Shown here: piece by piece, positions 1 to 6,341 of the stretch
Layout: the number at the start of each line of letters is the position of its first letter
How positions within the stretch are numbered: the stretch's first letter is position 1
Source: Escherichia coli
Lineage (GTDB): Bacteria; Pseudomonadota; Gammaproteobacteria; Enterobacterales; Enterobacteriaceae
Reading direction: 5' to 3' (one strand)
NCBI RefSeq assembly: GCF_003334255.1
Contig: NZ_QOWU01000043.1
DNA length: 46,580 nucleotides
Notes under the pieces: model-generated
What the model was told of the DNA's origin: nothing
Databases searched by the model: none
What the model saw: only the letters and a program-made list of their open reading frames with translations
Position numbers and translations under genes: made by a program

Positions 1-5
1 CAAAT

Positions 6-86
6 GCCTGATGCGCTACGCTTATCAGGCCTACAGATTCTTGCGCCATTCGTAGGCCGGATAAGGCGTTCACGCCGCATCCGGCA
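6..86. repeat. BIME: two REP (repetitive extragenic palindromic) units in inverted orientation, 6..34 and 52..86
   Basis: Direct read: gcctgatgcgctacgcttatcaggcctac and gtaggccggataaggcgttcacgccgcatccggca match the classic E. coli REP consensus; lies just 3' of the yahG stop. Confidence 0.8.
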
Positions 87-98
87 TGAACATGTAGG

Positions 99-1517
99 TC
101 AGACGCCGTAACGTTCGCACCAGCCAAGAATGGCTTTCTCGAAGCAGGCAAAAGGTGGATGCACAATGCCCGCGCCAATCATGCCGACGCCCGCATCTTT
201 ATGGGCGATGGCGGTGTTGATCACCGGCAGAATGCCGCTGCTACCCACGCGGGTGATGTCGATTGCCGACGGCACGCCCATAAAACCGAGCAGCGGAATG
301 GTGACGTTGGGGTTTTCACCGAGGGTGATTTCGCGCATCTGACGGGAGAAATCAATAGCTTCTTCCACCGTGCCGCCCACCAGCGCGACGATAGCGGGCG
401 CGGTCGCCATAGCAAATCCGCCAATACCGTAGGTTTCGGTGATGGCGCTGTCGCCGATATCCAGCCCCGAATCTTCCGGCTTATAACCGGCAAACATCGG
501 GCCGATCACCTGCTGCGCCGGGCCGGTAAACCATTGTCCCGGCAGGCCGCTGACCCGCAGGCCGAACTCGACGCCGTTACGCGCCATGGTGGTGACCACG
601 GTGCTGTATTCGATGCCATGCGCCGCATCCATCGCCGCTTTACACATCGCCATCCACGTCGGGCCGGAGAAGTAGTCGCTGCTGGCGACAAACTCAAACA
701 CTTCGCGCTGTTGCTCGACGGAATAACCCGCCTGAATAATCCCCGGCGTCAGCGCCTGAATCAGCAGTGTCGTCCCGGCGTTATTGCGGTTATGGCACTC
801 ATCGCCCATATGCAGCGCCTGCGCCAGCATTAAGCGCAGATCGATTTCGCCGATAATTTTCATCGCGTCGCGCAGTATTGGTCCCTGCACATCACGCATC
901 CAGTTCAGGCGGTCAATCACGCTCTGGTCGTTAGCGCCCATACGCAAAATCTTCGCCATCTGCTCGCTCATGTTGGTATAAGCGATGTTGCCGTAGGTTT
1001 TGTTTTTTACGATGTGCATAAACATCGAGGCCGAGGTAACACCCGCCATCGATCCCACGCAGTCGTGCTCGTGACACGGCGAGAAGGTGATCTCCCCGGA
1101 AGCCGCCAGTTCAGCCGCCTCGTCGAGATCTTTCGCCAGTCCTTCGAACACCAGCGCTCCGGTGACCGCGCCTTTCATCGCGCCGCACATTTTTTCCCAG
1201 GTGATCGGCGGCCCGGCGTGAAGAATGGTTTTCGCCGTCATGCCCGGCACCACGTTAATCGCCTGATCAAAACCAATCAGCACCGGATGCGACTGGATAA
1301 TACGCTCCAGCGCCTGCTGGTTAGCGGCGGCGATTTTGTCCGCCAGCGGCGAATCGGCAATGTTATCCAGCGCCTGCACCACCTGCATATTGCCCTGCCC
1401 CGGCGGCGTCCAGTCGAGTTGAGTCACTTCTACATGCTGCTTTTTCAGGTCATCGCTAAACATGGCGATGCCGACGTTAATAACGTTCAATGGTTGGCTA
1501 AACAGTGACTGGCTCAT
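99..1517 (-). CDS. yahG: DUF1116 family protein YahG (paralogue of YlbE/AllG)
   Basis: 472-aa ORF; protein recognised from recall as E. coli YahG; start overlaps yahF stop (ATGA junction at 1517). Confidence 0.9.
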   Translation of the reverse strand: MSQSLFSQPLNVINVGIAMFSDDLKKQHVEVTQLDWTPPGQGNMQVVQALDNIADSPLADKIAAANQQALERIIQSHPVLIGFDQAINVVPGMTAKTILHAGPPITWEKMCGAMKGAVTGALVFEGLAKDLDEAAELAASGEITFSPCHEHDCVGSMAGVTSASMFMHIVKNKTYGNIAYTNMSEQMAKILRMGANDQSVIDRLNWMRDVQGPILRDAMKIIGEIDLRLMLAQALHMGDECHNRNNAGTTLLIQALTPGIIQAGYSVEQQREVFEFVASSDYFSGPTWMAMCKAAMDAAHGIEYSTVVTTMARNGVEFGLRVSGLPGQWFTGPAQQVIGPMFAGYKPEDSGLDIGDSAITETYGIGGFAMATAPAIVALVGGTVEEAIDFSRQMREITLGENPNVTIPLLGFMGVPSAIDITRVGSSGILPVINTAIAHKDAGVGMIGAGIVHPPFACFEKAILGWCERYGV

Positions 1518-3064
1518 CAGGCTTCCTCCCCTTTGCAGATAAATTCACGCGCCAGCAATCCGGTATTGGTGCTGCTGCTCGCCAGAATCACTCCGGCATC
1601 AAGCAGCATCTGGCTTTGTTGTTCTAACGATGGCGTATCAAGATCGGTACCCAGCACATAGGCGAGAATGATCAACTCGCGTCCTTCGGCAGCGGCGATC
1701 GCTTTCGCTTCTTTGATCGTCTCGATGGTGGAGCCGACCGGATCTTCATGCGATCCAAATCCGAGCACAAAATCCATCACGATCACCGCCACTTCTGGAT
1801 CGCGCGCCTCTTCGATCAAGCGACTGATGCGGTTGGTGGGGTCAATCATCGGGTGCGGCTTGCCGTTGGTGAAGTCGTCATCGCCAAAGTCGAGGAAGGT
1901 GTGTTTGATGCTGCGGTTGATATCTTTCAGGCGGAATTCCGGATCGGGCTGAATGTTGCTGTAGACATCGCCATGTTTTTCCATCACCGCGAACATGGTT
2001 TCGTCGCACAGCGTGCCGCCGCAGAACAGGCCACGAATGTATTTCTGCTGCGGTTGCAGACGCGCACGCACATCCGCAATCAACGGCTGGTTAAGCGTAT
2101 GCAGGTCGAGATTTTCCTGTTTCACGCCGGAGAGCATCACCGCTTTTAGCGCTGCCTCTTTGGTGCCGCGGGCAAACTGTAGCCCCTGCTCATCCACTGG
2201 CGTTTCGCCACGATCGAGGAAGCAGACGACCACCGGCTTGCGGCAGGCGCGCGCACGTTCCAGCACTTTGCGGGCCACCGCAGGCGCAGGCGGTTTGGAG
2301 ATAAGCGCAATGATTTCAGTTTGCGGATCGTTTTCCAGCATCCCGATGGCGTCGAGCATCATCAGGCCGCCGATTTTCTCGCTCAGGTCGCGCCCGCCGG
2401 TGCCAATCAGTTGCGAAACGCCGCCGCCAAATTCATGAATGCGGACGCTCAACTCCTGACTGCCGGTGCCGGATGCGCCAACAATACCGATGTTGCCGCG
2501 ACGCACGGCGTTACCAAAACAGAGCGCCGCGCCGTTGATAATCGCCGTGCCACAGTCTGGCCCCATCATCAGCAGCCCTTTTTCGTGGGCCAGTTGCTTG
2601 AGCGCCAGTTCATCTTCAACTGAGACGTTATCGGAAAACAGCATCACGTTGAGATCGTTTTGCAGCGCCTGACGCGCTTCGCGAGCGGCAAACAGACCGT
2701 TGACCGAAATCACCGCCAGGTTACTTTCCGGGATATGCTTTTTGGCGCTGCCAATAGTGGCGTAACGCGCCTCGTGCGAGCCGCTTTGCGCTTTGGTGTT
2801 GAACAGTTCTTCAATCTCCACCAGCAACTGCTCGTTGTCCGCACCCGATTTACCATTGATGACAATCATCAGGTCGCCGTTTTTCGCCTGCTCCAGCTCC
2901 GGCGTCAGCAGTCCTAAATTCTTCAGCACGCCTTTATTCATTTCGGTCGCCATCGCCACAAATGCCTGCTCGACGCCGTCGAGTTTATTTGCACGCGTGG
3001 AGATAGACATCAGCGAGACAGAATCAAAATAGGTATTCGGTTTAATGACTATTTTAACTGACAT
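1517..3064 (-). CDS. yahF: FdrA-like CoA-binding / succinyl-CoA synthetase alpha-like protein YahF
   Basis: 515-aa ORF with glycine-rich CoA-ligase-like motifs (GIVGASGTG, GGRD); recognised as YahF; overlaps yahE by 11 nt. Confidence 0.9.
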   Translation of the reverse strand: MSVKIVIKPNTYFDSVSLMSISTRANKLDGVEQAFVAMATEMNKGVLKNLGLLTPELEQAKNGDLMIVINGKSGADNEQLLVEIEELFNTKAQSGSHEARYATIGSAKKHIPESNLAVISVNGLFAAREARQALQNDLNVMLFSDNVSVEDELALKQLAHEKGLLMMGPDCGTAIINGAALCFGNAVRRGNIGIVGASGTGSQELSVRIHEFGGGVSQLIGTGGRDLSEKIGGLMMLDAIGMLENDPQTEIIALISKPPAPAVARKVLERARACRKPVVVCFLDRGETPVDEQGLQFARGTKEAALKAVMLSGVKQENLDLHTLNQPLIADVRARLQPQQKYIRGLFCGGTLCDETMFAVMEKHGDVYSNIQPDPEFRLKDINRSIKHTFLDFGDDDFTNGKPHPMIDPTNRISRLIEEARDPEVAVIVMDFVLGFGSHEDPVGSTIETIKEAKAIAAAEGRELIILAYVLGTDLDTPSLEQQSQMLLDAGVILASSSTNTGLLAREFICKGEEA

Positions 3065-3917
3065 AATTCCCTCCGTAGGTTTGGCTCAGCACACAACCAT
3101 CGGCCATGCCATACAGCATGTCGCAGCCGGAACTGGAGCCAATATGTTTAATTTTTTCTATTGCCTGAGTTGCGTTCCCAGGGATGTCATAAATAATGTT
3201 GTGAATAAAACGATGAATATTTTCCCGGCAGCGTTGTTGTAATGCGGCTTCCAGCGTTATGGCACTTAATAATGTGGTATTATTTTTGCCGCGTTGCAGA
3301 CCGAGATAAAATTCCTCTTTGTATTTTTCCGCCGGATGCCCGGGAATAAATAAAATAAGCGCCAGACCTGTTAAATAATCGTCGGCTGATGGCGTAAGGC
3401 CAATCCCTAACCCCATCATACTGGCGACCGCTGAGGCGATATTTTGTTTATCGTTTACGGCCTGAATAACTGCCCGTCGTTTAATATGTAATTCTTTATT
3501 TAACGCCTGATAAAACGGATTATCGCCGCGATAATTAAACAGGGTTTCATTTTCCCCCAGGTGCTGATGAATAATGTCGTGCCACTGTAGCCAGGCGATA
3601 AGGTGAAAATTCACAGCGGTCATTTGCAAGGTTGGGGACAGCCAACGCCGACAACGACTCATCTCTATATGAAGATGTTGACCAACCGTAATACCTTGAT
3701 CGTCAAACTGAACCTTATCACCATGCCGGAACAGATCATCAAAGTGAGTGAGTGCCAACCGACAACTGTTTGGCGCATTGTCGTACTCTTCACAAAGCAG
3801 CGTCAGCAACTGCTGGCGAGCCGGGAGTGCGATATTTACCGCTCTGGCAAAGACCTGTTCAACCTGTCCTTGCCCCCGCTGCGCCAGAAAATCCGCATCC
3901 GCAGTTAGCGCCCACAC
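3054..3917 (-). CDS. yahE: DUF2877 family protein YahE (paralogue of YlbF/AllH)
   Basis: 287-aa ORF in operon arrangement with yahF and yahG; recognised as YahE. Confidence 0.85.
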   Translation of the reverse strand: MWALTADADFLAQRGQGQVEQVFARAVNIALPARQQLLTLLCEEYDNAPNSCRLALTHFDDLFRHGDKVQFDDQGITVGQHLHIEMSRCRRWLSPTLQMTAVNFHLIAWLQWHDIIHQHLGENETLFNYRGDNPFYQALNKELHIKRRAVIQAVNDKQNIASAVASMMGLGIGLTPSADDYLTGLALILFIPGHPAEKYKEEFYLGLQRGKNNTTLLSAITLEAALQQRCRENIHRFIHNIIYDIPGNATQAIEKIKHIGSSSGCDMLYGMADGCVLSQTYGGNYVS

Positions 3918-3956
3918 ACACCGTCTTTCTGGTGTGTTGATAGCAAGCCTCCCGGT

Positions 3957-4562
3957 TTATGCACCTGCGGCAATCAGTAACTGCGCAATCTCTTCAAAGC
4001 CCCGTTCCCGCGCCAGTTCCAGTGGCGTTTTGCCATATTTATCGGTCAGATGCGGGCTGGCACCGTGTTCCAGCAATAACTGCACAATCGCCTGCTGTTT
4101 AATACCACCATCATTAAGCACAATCGCTTCCAGTAGCGGCGTCCAGCCTACATGGTTGGTCTGGTTAACGTTAATCTCCGTATGCGCCAAAAGCTCTTTT
4201 ACAATACTTAAATGGCCTTTTTCACAGGCAGGCGTCAGGCCGACACCGCCAAAACGGGTTACGCAATTAAGATCGGGTTTAGCCGGTAAAATAATTCGTA
4301 GTAGCGTTAAATCATCGTTCAGACAGCTAATTAAAAAAGGATTTAAACAGGTATGATCTTGCTTATTAATATCCGCTCCGGCATCAATTAATGCCTGAAC
4401 GCAAGCATATTGCTGATATAAACTTGCCAGCGTAATTGCCGTTTTCCCCTGACGATCGCAGGTATTAATATCGACACCCAGCGCAAGGCAGGTTTTTACT
4501 TTATCGATATCACCCTGTTGTGCAGCCAATAAATAGTCGGCAGGTAGATTTTTTATACTCAT
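3957..4562 (-). CDS. yahD: ankyrin-repeat protein YahD
   Basis: 201-aa ORF with tandem ankyrin-like repeats (GKTAITLAS...LIDAGADIN; GWTPLLEAI...LLEHGASP; GKTPLELA). Confidence 0.9.
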   Translation of the reverse strand: MSIKNLPADYLLAAQQGDIDKVKTCLALGVDINTCDRQGKTAITLASLYQQYACVQALIDAGADINKQDHTCLNPFLISCLNDDLTLLRIILPAKPDLNCVTRFGGVGLTPACEKGHLSIVKELLAHTEINVNQTNHVGWTPLLEAIVLNDGGIKQQAIVQLLLEHGASPHLTDKYGKTPLELARERGFEEIAQLLIAAGA

Positions 4563-4665
4563 TCACATTCCCCTGGTTTTTGTGGCTGTTTTCGATGAAT
4601 TGAGAATAGCAACGATAATCTGATAAAAGAACCCGCTTAAATTTAATTCGCCGTATCTCGCCTTT

Positions 4666-4686
4666 TTGTTGAATAATATTCAACAA
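4666..4686. promoter_or_regulatory. 21-bp perfect palindrome TTGTTGAATA-A-TATTCAACAA in the yahD/yahC divergent intergenic region; candidate operator
   Basis: Direct read of sequence; function not established. Confidence 0.4.
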
Positions 4687-4819
4687 TCTTTTCGCAGTGT
4701 GCGGTAGTGCAATATTTGTTTCTTTGACCCGATACCCTTTCACTCAATCAGGTTTTATTTCTCTATAGTCTGCACATGTAAGAGTAGCTTTCGTCCATGT
4801 CTAACCAGAGGGGAACAAG

Positions 4820-5317
4820 ATGAACGGACTCACGGCAACGGGTGTCACCGTCGGTATTTGTGCAGGGCTTTGGCAGTTAGTGTCTTCACATGTCGGGCTC
4901 TCTCAAGGATGGGAATTATTAGGAACCATTGGCTTCGTCGCCTTTTGCAGTTTTTATGCCGCAGGCGGCGGTAAATCGGGGTTTATCAGAAGTCTGGCGG
5001 TTAATTATTCCGGGATGGTGTGGGCGTTTTTCGCCGCGCTGACTGCTGGTTGGCTGGCCTCTGTAAGTGGACTGTCCGCGTTCTGGGCGAGCGTAATTAC
5101 TACCGTACCCTTCTCGGCGGTAGTGGTCTGGCAAGGGCGTTTCTGGTTACTGTCCTTTATTCCCGGTGGCTTTCTCGGCATGACGCTGTTTTTTGCCAGC
5201 GGGATGAACTGGACGGTGACGTTACTGGGTTTTCTGGCGGGTAACTGCGTGGGGGTAATTTCAGAATATGGTGGACAAAAATTAAGCGAAGCGACGACTA
5301 AACGCGACGGGTATTAA
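4820..5317 (+). CDS. yahC: inner membrane protein YahC
   Basis: 165-aa hydrophobic ORF, multiple predicted transmembrane segments; recognised as YahC. Confidence 0.85.
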   Translation: MNGLTATGVTVGICAGLWQLVSSHVGLSQGWELLGTIGFVAFCSFYAAGGGKSGFIRSLAVNYSGMVWAFFAALTAGWLASVSGLSAFWASVITTVPFSAVVVWQGRFWLLSFIPGGFLGMTLFFASGMNWTVTLLGFLAGNCVGVISEYGGQKLSEATTKRDGY

Positions 5318-5408
5318 AAGTTATTCAAAAATGATTATCTATCTTTAACCGATACCTCTACAGTCATAGCTGGAGAAATTCATAGTAGATAATGGCGAGA
5401 ATGGTTTA

Positions 5409-6341
5409 ATGAACTCAATTTTTACCGAAGAGAATCTGTTGGCATTTACTACCGCTGCGCGTTTTGGCAGCTTCAGTAAAGCCGCAGAAGAGTTGGGTTT
5501 AACCACTTCCGCCATTAGCTACACCATTAAGCGTATGGAGACGGGGCTGGATGTGGTGCTGTTCACTCGCAGTACCCGCAGCATTGAGTTAACGGAGTCC
5601 GGGCGTTATTTTTTCCGCAAAGCTACCGACCTGCTGAATGATTTTTATGCCATCAAACGCAGTATCGATACTATTTCGCAGGGCATAGAAGCGCGTGTGC
5701 GCATTTGTATTAATCAGCTGCTTTATACGCCCAAACACACCGCACGCTTGTTACAGGTGCTGAAAAAGCAGTTTCCTACCTGCCAGATTACCGTCACCAC
5801 CGAAGTGTATAACGGCGTCTGGGATGCGATTATTAATAATCAGGCCAATATCGCCATCGGCGCACCCGATACACTACTGGACGGCGGCGGTATTGATTAC
5901 ACTGAAATTGGCGCGATTCGCTGGGCTTTTGCTATCGCCCCGGATCACCCGTTAGCCTTTGTGCCGGAACCCATCGCCGAAAGCCAACTGCGTCTCTACC
6001 CTAATATTATGGTGGAGGACACCGCGCATACGATTAATAAAAAAGTGGGCTGGTTGCTGCACGGGCAGGAGTCAATTCTGGTGCCAGATTTCAACACCAA
6101 ATGTCAGTGCCAGATTTTAGGTGAAGGAATTGGTTTTTTGCCGGATTACATGGTCCGTGAGGCGATGACGCAATCCCTGCTGGTTACCCGACAAATCCAT
6201 AATCCGCGCCAGGATTCGCGCATGTTACTGGCGACTCAGCATTCTGCTACGGGTCAGGTGACGCAGTGGATTAAAAAACAATTTGCGCCAAATGGCATAT
6301 TAACGGGGATCTATCAGGATTTACTGCATCGGGAGAATTAA
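5409..6341 (+). CDS. yahB: LysR-family transcriptional regulator YahB
   Basis: 310-aa ORF; N-terminal LysR helix-turn-helix (FSKAAEELGLTTSAISYTIKRME) plus substrate-binding domain. Confidence 0.9.
   Translation: MNSIFTEENLLAFTTAARFGSFSKAAEELGLTTSAISYTIKRMETGLDVVLFTRSTRSIELTESGRYFFRKATDLLNDFYAIKRSIDTISQGIEARVRICINQLLYTPKHTARLLQVLKKQFPTCQITVTTEVYNGVWDAIINNQANIAIGAPDTLLDGGGIDYTEIGAIRWAFAIAPDHPLAFVPEPIAESQLRLYPNIMVEDTAHTINKKVGWLLHGQESILVPDFNTKCQCQILGEGIGFLPDYMVREAMTQSLLVTRQIHNPRQDSRMLLATQHSATGQVTQWIKKQFAPNGILTGIYQDLLHREN

Follow-up and report, generated by a model that had tools for sequence, protein, structure and literature searches.

The yahDEFG operon of Escherichia coli belongs to a conserved, ankyrin-linked gene module predicted to encode a second AllFGH-type carbamoyltransferase

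We investigated the yahDEFG operon in a 46,580-nucleotide stretch of Escherichia coli DNA (RefSeq assembly GCF_003334255.1, contig NZ_QOWU01000043.1; hereafter, the window), in which four minus-strand genes encode an ankyrin-repeat protein (YahD) and homologs (YahF, YahG and YahE, respectively) of AllF, AllG and AllH, the three subunits of the oxamic transcarbamylase of the allantoin pathway. Our principal conclusion, to which we assign a probability of about 0.55, is that yahDEFG, together with yahI, yahJ and the yahC-yahB pair, forms a self-contained catabolic module built around a second AllFGH-type carbamoyltransferase that acts on a ureide other than allantoin-derived oxalurate. The first-pass annotation of this DNA had described the operon as an uncharacterized paralog of the allantoin-pathway genes, and both its observation and its interpretation stand. 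What the present comparison adds is a separate, highly conserved, ankyrin-linked clade with a dispensable AllH-type subunit, lineage-specific deaminases and transporters, and a paralogous regulator with a conserved candidate operator.

In the proposed scheme, YahF and YahG would form the conserved catalytic core, with YahE as an accessory subunit dispensed with in some lineages. We infer that this enzyme cleaves an N-carbamoyl compound with phosphate, yielding carbamoyl phosphate and the de-carbamoylated amide or amine, and that the carbamate kinase YahI then converts carbamoyl phosphate and ADP to ATP, NH3 and CO2. YahJ, an enzyme of the AtzC/cytosine deaminase type exported by the twin-arginine translocation (Tat) route, would act in the periplasm and generate the ureido compound from an amino or guanidino precursor; YahB would activate the operon through a conserved palindrome upstream of yahD; and YahD would be the ankyrin partner of the enzyme, in a scaffold, adaptor or channeling role.

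An intact and translationally coupled operon

Window positions 1-6000 are E. coli chromosome, with 100% identity to several complete genomes; of the 5426 complete E. coli genomes, 5017 (92%) retain at least 80% of this segment (megablast). As the first-pass annotation claimed, positions 99-4562 hold four intact minus-strand open reading frames (ORFs), yahG, yahF, yahE and yahD (Table 1), and the stop/start overlaps, read directly from the sequence, lie exactly where it had placed them, at 1517 and 3054..3064. The genes are densely packed and translationally coupled: the TGA of yahF and the ATG of yahG have one base in common (cTGATGa), with a GGAGGA Shine-Dalgarno sequence before them; the ATG of yahF lies 11 nt inside the 3' end of yahE and is preceded by GGAGGG; and 39 nt separate the yahD stop from the GTG start of yahE. 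In the strain represented by L001 (L numbers denote our comparison sequences), which is 100% identical to the window, the yah locus is flanked by the prp and bet genes; in K-12, the all cluster has a different location.

All four genes are under purifying selection, with ratios of nonsynonymous to synonymous divergence (dN/dS) of 0.02-0.04 for yahG, 0.04-0.07 for yahF, 0.07-0.15 for yahD and 0.20-0.30 for yahE. A value of 0.81 (dN 0.58) for yahF against E. albertii was set aside, the proteins being 97% identical at the same locus; this odd value, from the draft contig L009, is probably a frameshift or an artifact of the alignment or of the choice of high-scoring segment pair.

Homology to the allantoin-pathway proteins

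The paralogy of YahF, YahG and YahE to AllF, AllG and AllH, proposed at the outset, is borne out by pairwise BLASTP against the K-12 proteins, which gave significant matches for all three: 38% identity for YahF-AllF (E 2e-101), 45% for YahG-AllG (E 5e-120) and 25% for YahE-AllH (E 2e-10). YahI matches AllK (38% identity, E 5e-57), and the parallel with the all cluster includes the regulator: YahB is a paralog of the allF operon activator AllS (39% identity, E 9e-73), and in NCBIfam it scores best, though under the cut-offs, against AllS (267 bits) and PunR. The functions on the allantoin side are well defined: AllFGH has been purified and assayed as oxamic transcarbamylase (Kim & Kim 2024, PMC11326118), AllK is a catabolic carbamate kinase (Kim & Kim 2022, PMC9843812), and the allF operon depends on AllS and ArcA (PMC12535856). 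None of these three papers mentions yah.

Family and structure searches agree with the pairwise comparison. YahF passes the NCBIfam FdrA model NF004760 (487.7 bits, cut-off 433) and matches E. coli FdrA in the Protein Data Bank (PDB 3dmy, E 5e-82); its Pfam domains, Ligase_CoA (E 4e-31) and CoA_binding (E 4e-11), give it a resemblance to the succinyl-CoA synthetase alpha subunit, although it scores only 66.6 and 59.7 bits against the SucD models, far below their cut-offs of 336 and 353, and its match to SucD ends before His246, the phosphohistidine position. YahE matches the Pfam AllH family (PF11392, E 2.5e-28) and no NCBIfam family; its structure model is confident, and we found no solved structural relative. 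Homologs of YahG carry PF06545, and YahG itself reaches the cut-off of no NCBIfam family, its single sub-threshold match being to the C-terminal tail of AllF. Its closest structure is PDB 3clq (E 8e-196), which is solved but unannotated and which we take to be from Enterococcus faecalis. Some RefSeq records name YahE "AllH family", YahG "AllG family" and YahF "acyl-CoA synthetase FdrA", so that the status of these proteins as uncharacterized paralogs is already visible in current annotation.

The boundary between the F and G genes is shifted by about 45 residues, with the C-terminal tail of AllF matching residues 12-53 of YahG. The AllF/AllG gene boundary is mobile, and in many family members F and G are fused into one protein of about 1000 residues (e.g. 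L091:3924-6953). YahG residues 1-53 are encoded at window positions 1360-1517, and the homologous segment at the end of AllF (its last ~45 residues) at L002:18214-18348. In one Enterococcus assembly (L087:9751-9984), the boundary segment is a separate 77-aa ORF that follows in-frame stops.

A separate and widely spread clade

We compared 80 species loci, nearly all from Enterobacterales, drawn from 475 matching stretches in the species collection. In these comparisons, yah is not a local E. coli duplicate but a separate, widely spread clade that is more conserved than the all type. YahG is 76-77% identical to its counterparts in Brevibacillus and Paenibacillus, 79% to that in Janthinobacterium and 88% to that in Aeromonas, against 45% to its own paralog AllG. 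When representatives were clustered at 50% identity, the yah clade formed one cluster, with all other family members at most 50% identical.

The canonical arrangement in the 80 species loci is yahB followed by the divergent series yahD-yahE-yahF-yahG-permease-yahI-yahJ. The order ankyrin-AllH-AllF-AllG-transporter-carbamate kinase recurs in these loci and in Brevibacillus, Janthinobacterium and Aeromonas, and its recurrence across lineages implies that the link between the F/G pair and the carbamate kinase is selected. This link is found in 74 of the 80 species loci, in four of the six lineages sampled outside Enterobacterales and, additionally, in some other clades of the family. The Brevibacillus module comprises genes for a PucR regulator, ankyrin protein, AllH, AllF, AllG, an NCS1 transporter resembling allantoin permeases, carbamate kinase and a small deaminase. 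Those of Janthinobacterium and Aeromonas run from the ankyrin gene through AllH, AllF and AllG to genes for a membrane protein of 517 residues and for carbamate kinase, and a LysR gene resembling allS adjoins them. A yahB ortholog adjoins the module in the enterobacterial loci that reach far enough upstream, as well as in Aeromonas and Janthinobacterium. The sole yah-type locus sampled with no ankyrin or kinase gene within 10 kb is that of Enterococcus.

The first-pass annotation had remarked that the ankyrin partner has no counterpart in the allantoin cluster. Indeed, the K-12 all cluster contains no ankyrin gene, and none was found in the all type or in four further F/G clades sampled. Within the yah clade, by contrast with these relatives, the ankyrin protein is a regular, conserved member. 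Wherever yahD and yahF are both present among the species loci (78 in all), yahD comes first in the module, as its orthologs do in Brevibacillus, Janthinobacterium and Aeromonas; of the four Firmicutes lineages sampled, three have an ankyrin protein with the module, and so do Proteobacteria. In Neobacillus and Trichococcus it is fused to tetratricopeptide (TPR) repeats, and the N-terminal half of the Neobacillus fusion is 39% identical to YahD over the full length of YahD. E. coli YahD, annotated in RefSeq as an ankyrin-repeat protein, gives partial matches to ankyrin families, and its orthologs carry Ank_2/Ank_4 domains; by eye, its N-terminus contains no signal peptide, and the protein is probably cytoplasmic.

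Carbamate kinase, deaminases and the likely substrate

Because window positions 1-98 are repetitive extragenic palindromic (REP) sequence, they match a median of 35 places per E. coli genome (megablast). In L001, the array to which they belong lies between yahG and yahI (8771-9191), and the nominal gene yahH has been described as filled with REP23 (PMC4765031, PMC11551758). The carbamate kinase gene yahI, expected just beyond the REP element, is found directly past the array in L001, and yahJ, also looked for on this side, follows as an amidohydrolase gene on the same strand; both genes lie outside the window and are placed from this identical strain. Ribosome footprints extend across the yahG-yahI gap, and an operon yahDEFGIJ has been proposed (PMC4765031). 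In most other genera, a gene for a 517-residue permease occupies the position of the Escherichia REP array.

YahJ matches PRK06846 (712 bits), and its closest structures are AtzC and the cytosine deaminase CodA. It contains a metal-ligand HxH motif, an HxxE motif and a deaminase-type active site, along with a motif, GTDSVIDHWSPYG, that resembles what we take to be the corresponding CodA segment, GHDDVFDPWYPLG. A twin-arginine signal, SRREFL...AHA, is present. Trichococcus encodes two YahJ paralogs, and Brevibacillus and Neobacillus encode an enzyme of the cytidine deaminase (CDA) fold closest to the guanine deaminase of Bacillus subtilis. Hence the feeder genes vary with lineage, yet all are predicted hydrolytic deaminases. 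The minimal clusters of Janthinobacterium and Aeromonas have no deaminase, which implies that the compound imported by the permease should itself be the substrate there.

The most likely substrate would be an N-acylurea akin to oxalurate, though not oxalurate derived from allantoin. Three considerations point to an N-acylurea: the only characterized relative cleaves oxalurate; other F/G clades adjoin AtzD/TrzD, biuret/triuret hydrolases or a RutB-like amidase; and an acylguanidine or amino-heterocycle acted on by the feeder deaminases would give the corresponding acylurea. On a metagenomic contig (L090:5400-9428), a gene for an AtzD/TrzD ring-opening amidohydrolase lies directly upstream of an AllF-AllG pair that is 48% identical to YahG and has no AllH gene, suggesting that the AllF/AllG family processes ring-opened products of the cyanurate or barbiturate type. 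In nitrifiers, genes for biuret and triuret hydrolases (biuH/trtA) lie beside the F/G pair (PMC12625717), and the GR29 region of E. coli BEN2908 combines such a pair with a carbamate kinase, a CodB-like permease and a RutB-like amidase (PMC12928451). The GR29 pair, a third AllF/AllG pair present in some extraintestinal E. coli, is 46% identical to YahG and 40% to FdrA. The transporters of the yah module, for their part, are of the NCS1 (allantoin permease-like) type or of the modeled fold with 7+7 transmembrane (TM) segments shared by NCS2, AZG and SulP.

A bolder proposal, which we advance tentatively and with the odds clearly against it, is that the ankyrin protein is a working partner of an enzyme system that yields ATP at substrate level, in enterobacteria and bacilli, from a natural ureide or amino-heterocycle so far unrecognized as a source of energy or nitrogen. 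Candidate substrates would be compounds of the biuret, allophanate, cyanurate or isocytosine type, and the ankyrin protein could act as an anchor for the carbamate kinase or the permease, allowing direct transfer of the labile carbamoyl phosphate. If true, this would be a new pathway of the arginine deiminase type, built on a transcarbamylase without the ornithine transcarbamylase (OTCase) fold, and a rare case of an ankyrin-repeat protein serving a bacterial metabolic enzyme.

Relation to known systems

The closest known system, AllFGH (EC 2.1.3.5) with AllK, has the same three protein families encoded by contiguous genes, a linked catabolic carbamate kinase, a paralogous LysR activator and, presumably, the same chemistry, in which an N-carbamoyl compound is cleaved by phosphate to give carbamoyl phosphate. 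The two systems differ in gene order (H-F-G-K in yah, F-G-H-K in all) and in the additional ankyrin gene of yah, which, moreover, resides at a separate locus outside the allantoin gene cluster and the AllS/ArcA regulon, with its own regulator YahB and a Tat-exported deaminase. The F/G boundary has moved by about 45 residues, subunit identity is 25-45%, and the AllH-type subunit can be missing. The relationship is not one of orthology: YahG forms its own cluster at 50% identity and is far more conserved across phyla.

The arginine and agmatine deiminase pathways follow the same logic, in which hydrolytic deamination yields a ureido compound and phosphorolysis of that compound yields carbamoyl phosphate, from which carbamate kinase makes ATP, and their genes are likewise clustered with a transporter, as in most yah relatives. 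In contrast to these pathways, the yah transcarbamylase would be of the multi-subunit AllF/AllG type rather than of the aspartate transcarbamylase (ATCase)/OTCase fold, no gene for which is annotated in the 24-kb region around the cluster (L001), and the yah deaminase belongs to the amidohydrolase superfamily and is predicted to be exported to the periplasm in Enterobacterales.

Other AllF-AllG clusters (L090, the nitrifiers, GR29) share the placement of an F/G core beside enzymes that open or trim ureides, often with an adjoining carbamate kinase and nucleobase-type permease. They differ from yah in being only 44-50% identical to YahG and in containing no ankyrin gene, and there is no AllH-family gene in L090 or among the five tabulated GR29 genes (PMC12928451). 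Finally, YahF shares its CoA_binding and Ligase_CoA domains with succinyl-CoA synthetase alpha and other NDP-forming acyl-CoA synthetases, but comes without a beta/ATP-grasp partner, scores under the respective cut-offs and has in AllF a paralog that functions in carbamoyl transfer.

Variable components: YahE, the permease and YahC

YahE is the fastest-evolving part of the module, at 26-64% identity outside Escherichia where YahG stands at 77-99%, and yahE is absent from 25 of 78 species loci. It is deleted, with the rest of the cluster intact, in Enterobacter, Leclercia, Lelliottia, Silvania, Huaxiibacter, one Serratia and Aeromonas cavernicola; in Enterobacter cloacae, yahD and yahF are separated by a spacer of 107 bp, and in Serratia sp. 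DD3 only the last 36 codons of yahE are left. Since yahE has been lost from many loci in which the rest of the cluster is intact, the AllH-type subunit is dispensable or replaceable in the yah clade.

The 517-residue permease is encoded between yahG and yahI in most genera and is well conserved (73% identity between Neobacillus and Aeromonas). It matched nothing in Pfam, NCBIfam or PDB sequence searches, and its low-confidence model (predicted local distance difference test, pLDDT, 61) resembles only transporters with 7+7 TM segments: NCS2/NAT, AZG and SLC26/SulP. The permease is absent from Escherichia, Kluyvera, Pseudocitrobacter, Raoultella, Citrobacter amalonaticus and Klebsiella spallanzanii, which instead have yahC between yahB and yahD. 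The two genes never occur together in the 80 loci, and tblastn searches (E up to 10) detected no permease remnant in the E. coli-type loci and no yahC remnant in the permease-type loci. We considered whether this mutual exclusivity reflects repeated functional replacement and rejected the idea: all yahC-type clusters, whose YahG proteins are 94-99% identical to that of E. coli, belong to one sub-clade, so the exclusivity amounts to a single evolutionary event and provides weak evidence that YahC might replace the permease.

Candidate regulatory elements upstream of yahD

Alignment of the regions upstream of yahD from 18 genera revealed four conserved elements in an otherwise diverged intergenic region (Table 1). 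Closest to the gene, the block GTTGCTATTCTCA is conserved in all 18 genera and is the basis of the candidate extended -10 element TGCTATTCT. Because a simple scan for sigma-70 promoters and terminators yielded fewer hits here than in shuffled sequence and gave no useful candidate on the minus strand, the promoter proposal draws entirely on cross-genus conservation. Farther upstream, the block CGGCGAATTAAATTTAAGCGGGTTC may be a LysR activation site, and beyond it the palindrome ATTGTTGAA-N5-TTCAACAA (4665..4687) has the shape expected of a LysR site. The candidate binder is YahB, presumed to be the regulator of the yah operon.

Alternative explanations

Several observations weigh against the interpretation of yah as a module for a distinct ureide. 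Searches of the literature on the yah genes, DUF1116/DUF2877 and related purine catabolism found no functional study, nor did they turn up assay data, a phenotype or expression data for any of the yah genes. The E. coli cluster has only YahC (DUF1097) and no permease. No ring-opening enzyme is conserved in the yah clusters, which leaves the step from a deaminated heterocycle to an open-chain ureide unexplained, and the scaffold or adaptor role given to YahD is speculation. In addition, some AllF/AllG clades adjoin genes for a phosphotransferase system (PTS) component, an aminotransferase or a ferredoxin, with no evident ureide link, implying that the chemistry of the AllF/AllG family may not be uniform.

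It is unlikely, in our assessment, that YahDEFG is simply a second oxalurate-specific oxamate carbamoyltransferase, serving another entry route (exogenous oxalurate or parabanate) or another regulatory condition. All three subunit families are common to AllFGH, the modeled permease fold is that of NCS2/SulP, in which some transporters carry small anions such as oxalate, and the version closest to YahG occurs in E. faecalis (3clq; ~75% identity by reading the printed alignment). Oxamic transcarbamylase was reportedly first described in streptococci related to Enterococcus, and its induction by parabanic acid has reportedly been described. Nevertheless, subunit identities of 25-45% and a highly conserved, separate YahG clade fit a distinct specificity better, and neither the linked deaminases nor the ankyrin partner would have a role in an oxalurate pathway. 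Genetic data bear on the same point: K-12 deleted for allF or allG makes no oxamate from allantoin, though yah is present (PMC11326118). This means that yah does not stand in for all under those allantoin conditions, for which a lack of yah induction is an equally good explanation. In the same study, the K-12 allH single mutant makes very little oxamate (1.2 mM; PMC11326118, Tables 1-3), and in the allFGH triple mutant plasmid-borne allFG restores 7% and allGH 16% of the oxamate, a finding on which the authors do not comment; one possible explanation is that the Yah paralogs helped in part.

We consider it improbable that yahDEFG of E. coli, having lost the permease and gained the REP array, is cryptic or in decay and no longer supports a pathway. 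Escherichia-type clusters do lack the permease, with no remnant of its gene, the REP array parts yahG from yahI, and no phenotype has been reported. Decay is, however, hard to reconcile with intact ORFs, dN/dS of 0.02-0.30, retention in 5017 of 5426 complete genomes and conserved cis elements upstream of yahD; furthermore, ribosome footprints cross the yahG-yahI gap (PMC4765031), and the permease-less yahC architecture is also kept in Kluyvera, Raoultella, Pseudocitrobacter and others. Very improbable, finally, is a role of YahF as an acyl-CoA synthetase in CoA-dependent chemistry unrelated to carbamoyl transfer, despite its RefSeq name and its succinyl-CoA synthetase alpha-like CoA_binding and Ligase_CoA domains. 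Its SucD score of 66.6 falls well short of the cut-off of 336, no gene for an ATP-grasp beta subunit is present among the annotated genes of the 24-kb region (L001) or among the Pfam-annotated genes of L003-L006, the paralog AllF is required in the purified oxamic transcarbamylase, and the F/G pair is linked to carbamate kinase in 74 of 80 species loci.

The preferred reading, a second AllFGH-type carbamoyltransferase for another ureide, concerns one of the dense groups of uncharacterized genes in the bacterium that has been studied best: yahC, E, G, H, I and J are still classed in this way in a survey of the E. coli y-ome published in 2024 (PMC11551758). As the closest relatives of yah have had a defined activity since 2024, its function is directly testable, and the permease-bearing relatives (Citrobacter, Enterobacter) should show growth phenotypes that E. 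coli may not. A new substrate, if confirmed, would add an ATP-yielding pathway for nitrogen heterocycles to gut and soil bacteria.

Features of the locus and additional observations

Table 1. Genes and candidate elements of the yah locus (window coordinates) and related sites in comparison sequences (L numbers)
Feature	Position	Strand	Description
REP/bacterial interspersed mosaic element (BIME) repeats	1..98	no strand	Two REP units by sequence, at the border of the "yahH" array
yahG	99..1517	-	472 aa; AllG-family (PF06545/DUF1116) subunit; most conserved module member
yahF	1517..3064	-	515 aa; AllF/FdrA-family subunit, CoA_binding + Ligase_CoA
yahE	3054..3917	-	287 aa; GTG start; AllH-family (PF11392/DUF2877) putative accessory subunit
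yahD	3957..4562	-	201 aa; ankyrin-repeat protein; heads the operon
Candidate extended -10 element TGCTATTCT	4603..4611	-	For yahDEFG; from conservation only
Conserved block CGGCGAATTAAATTTAAGCGGGTTC	4629..4653	-	Between palindrome and -10 element
Palindrome ATTGTTGAA-N5-TTCAACAA	4665..4687	-	Kept from Escherichia to Aeromonas, recognizable in Janthinobacterium
Conserved upstream block TTGCACTACCGCACA	4698..4712	-	Beyond the palindrome; 18-genus alignment
yahC	4820..5317	+	DUF1097 membrane protein; divergent from yahD
yahB	5409..6341	+	LysR-type regulator; paralog of AllS and PunR
yahE deletion sites	L050:8348-8453; L066:2900-3411; L080:8169-8453		
Permease ORFs	L006:11540-13093; orthologs e.g. 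L050:11422-12999, L088:14230-15777		

Two further observations concern the integrity and history of the locus. In E. coli MB20 (NZ_CP073976.1), the annotation lists an IS1 transposase gene between yahE and yahD, an insertion that would cut yahD and the promoter off from the rest of the operon. Comparison with Pseudocitrobacter, in turn, revealed a recombination mosaic around the yahE/yahF junction (window about 3054-3064; L010, L011). Synonymous divergence is 0.16-0.17 for yahF and yahG, in contrast to 1.2-2.4 for yahE, yahD, yahC and yahB, and YahI and YahJ are 97-98% identical to the Pseudocitrobacter proteins. The low divergence from yahF to yahJ, set against the high divergence from yahE to yahB, implies that the Escherichia and Pseudocitrobacter lineages recently exchanged this segment.

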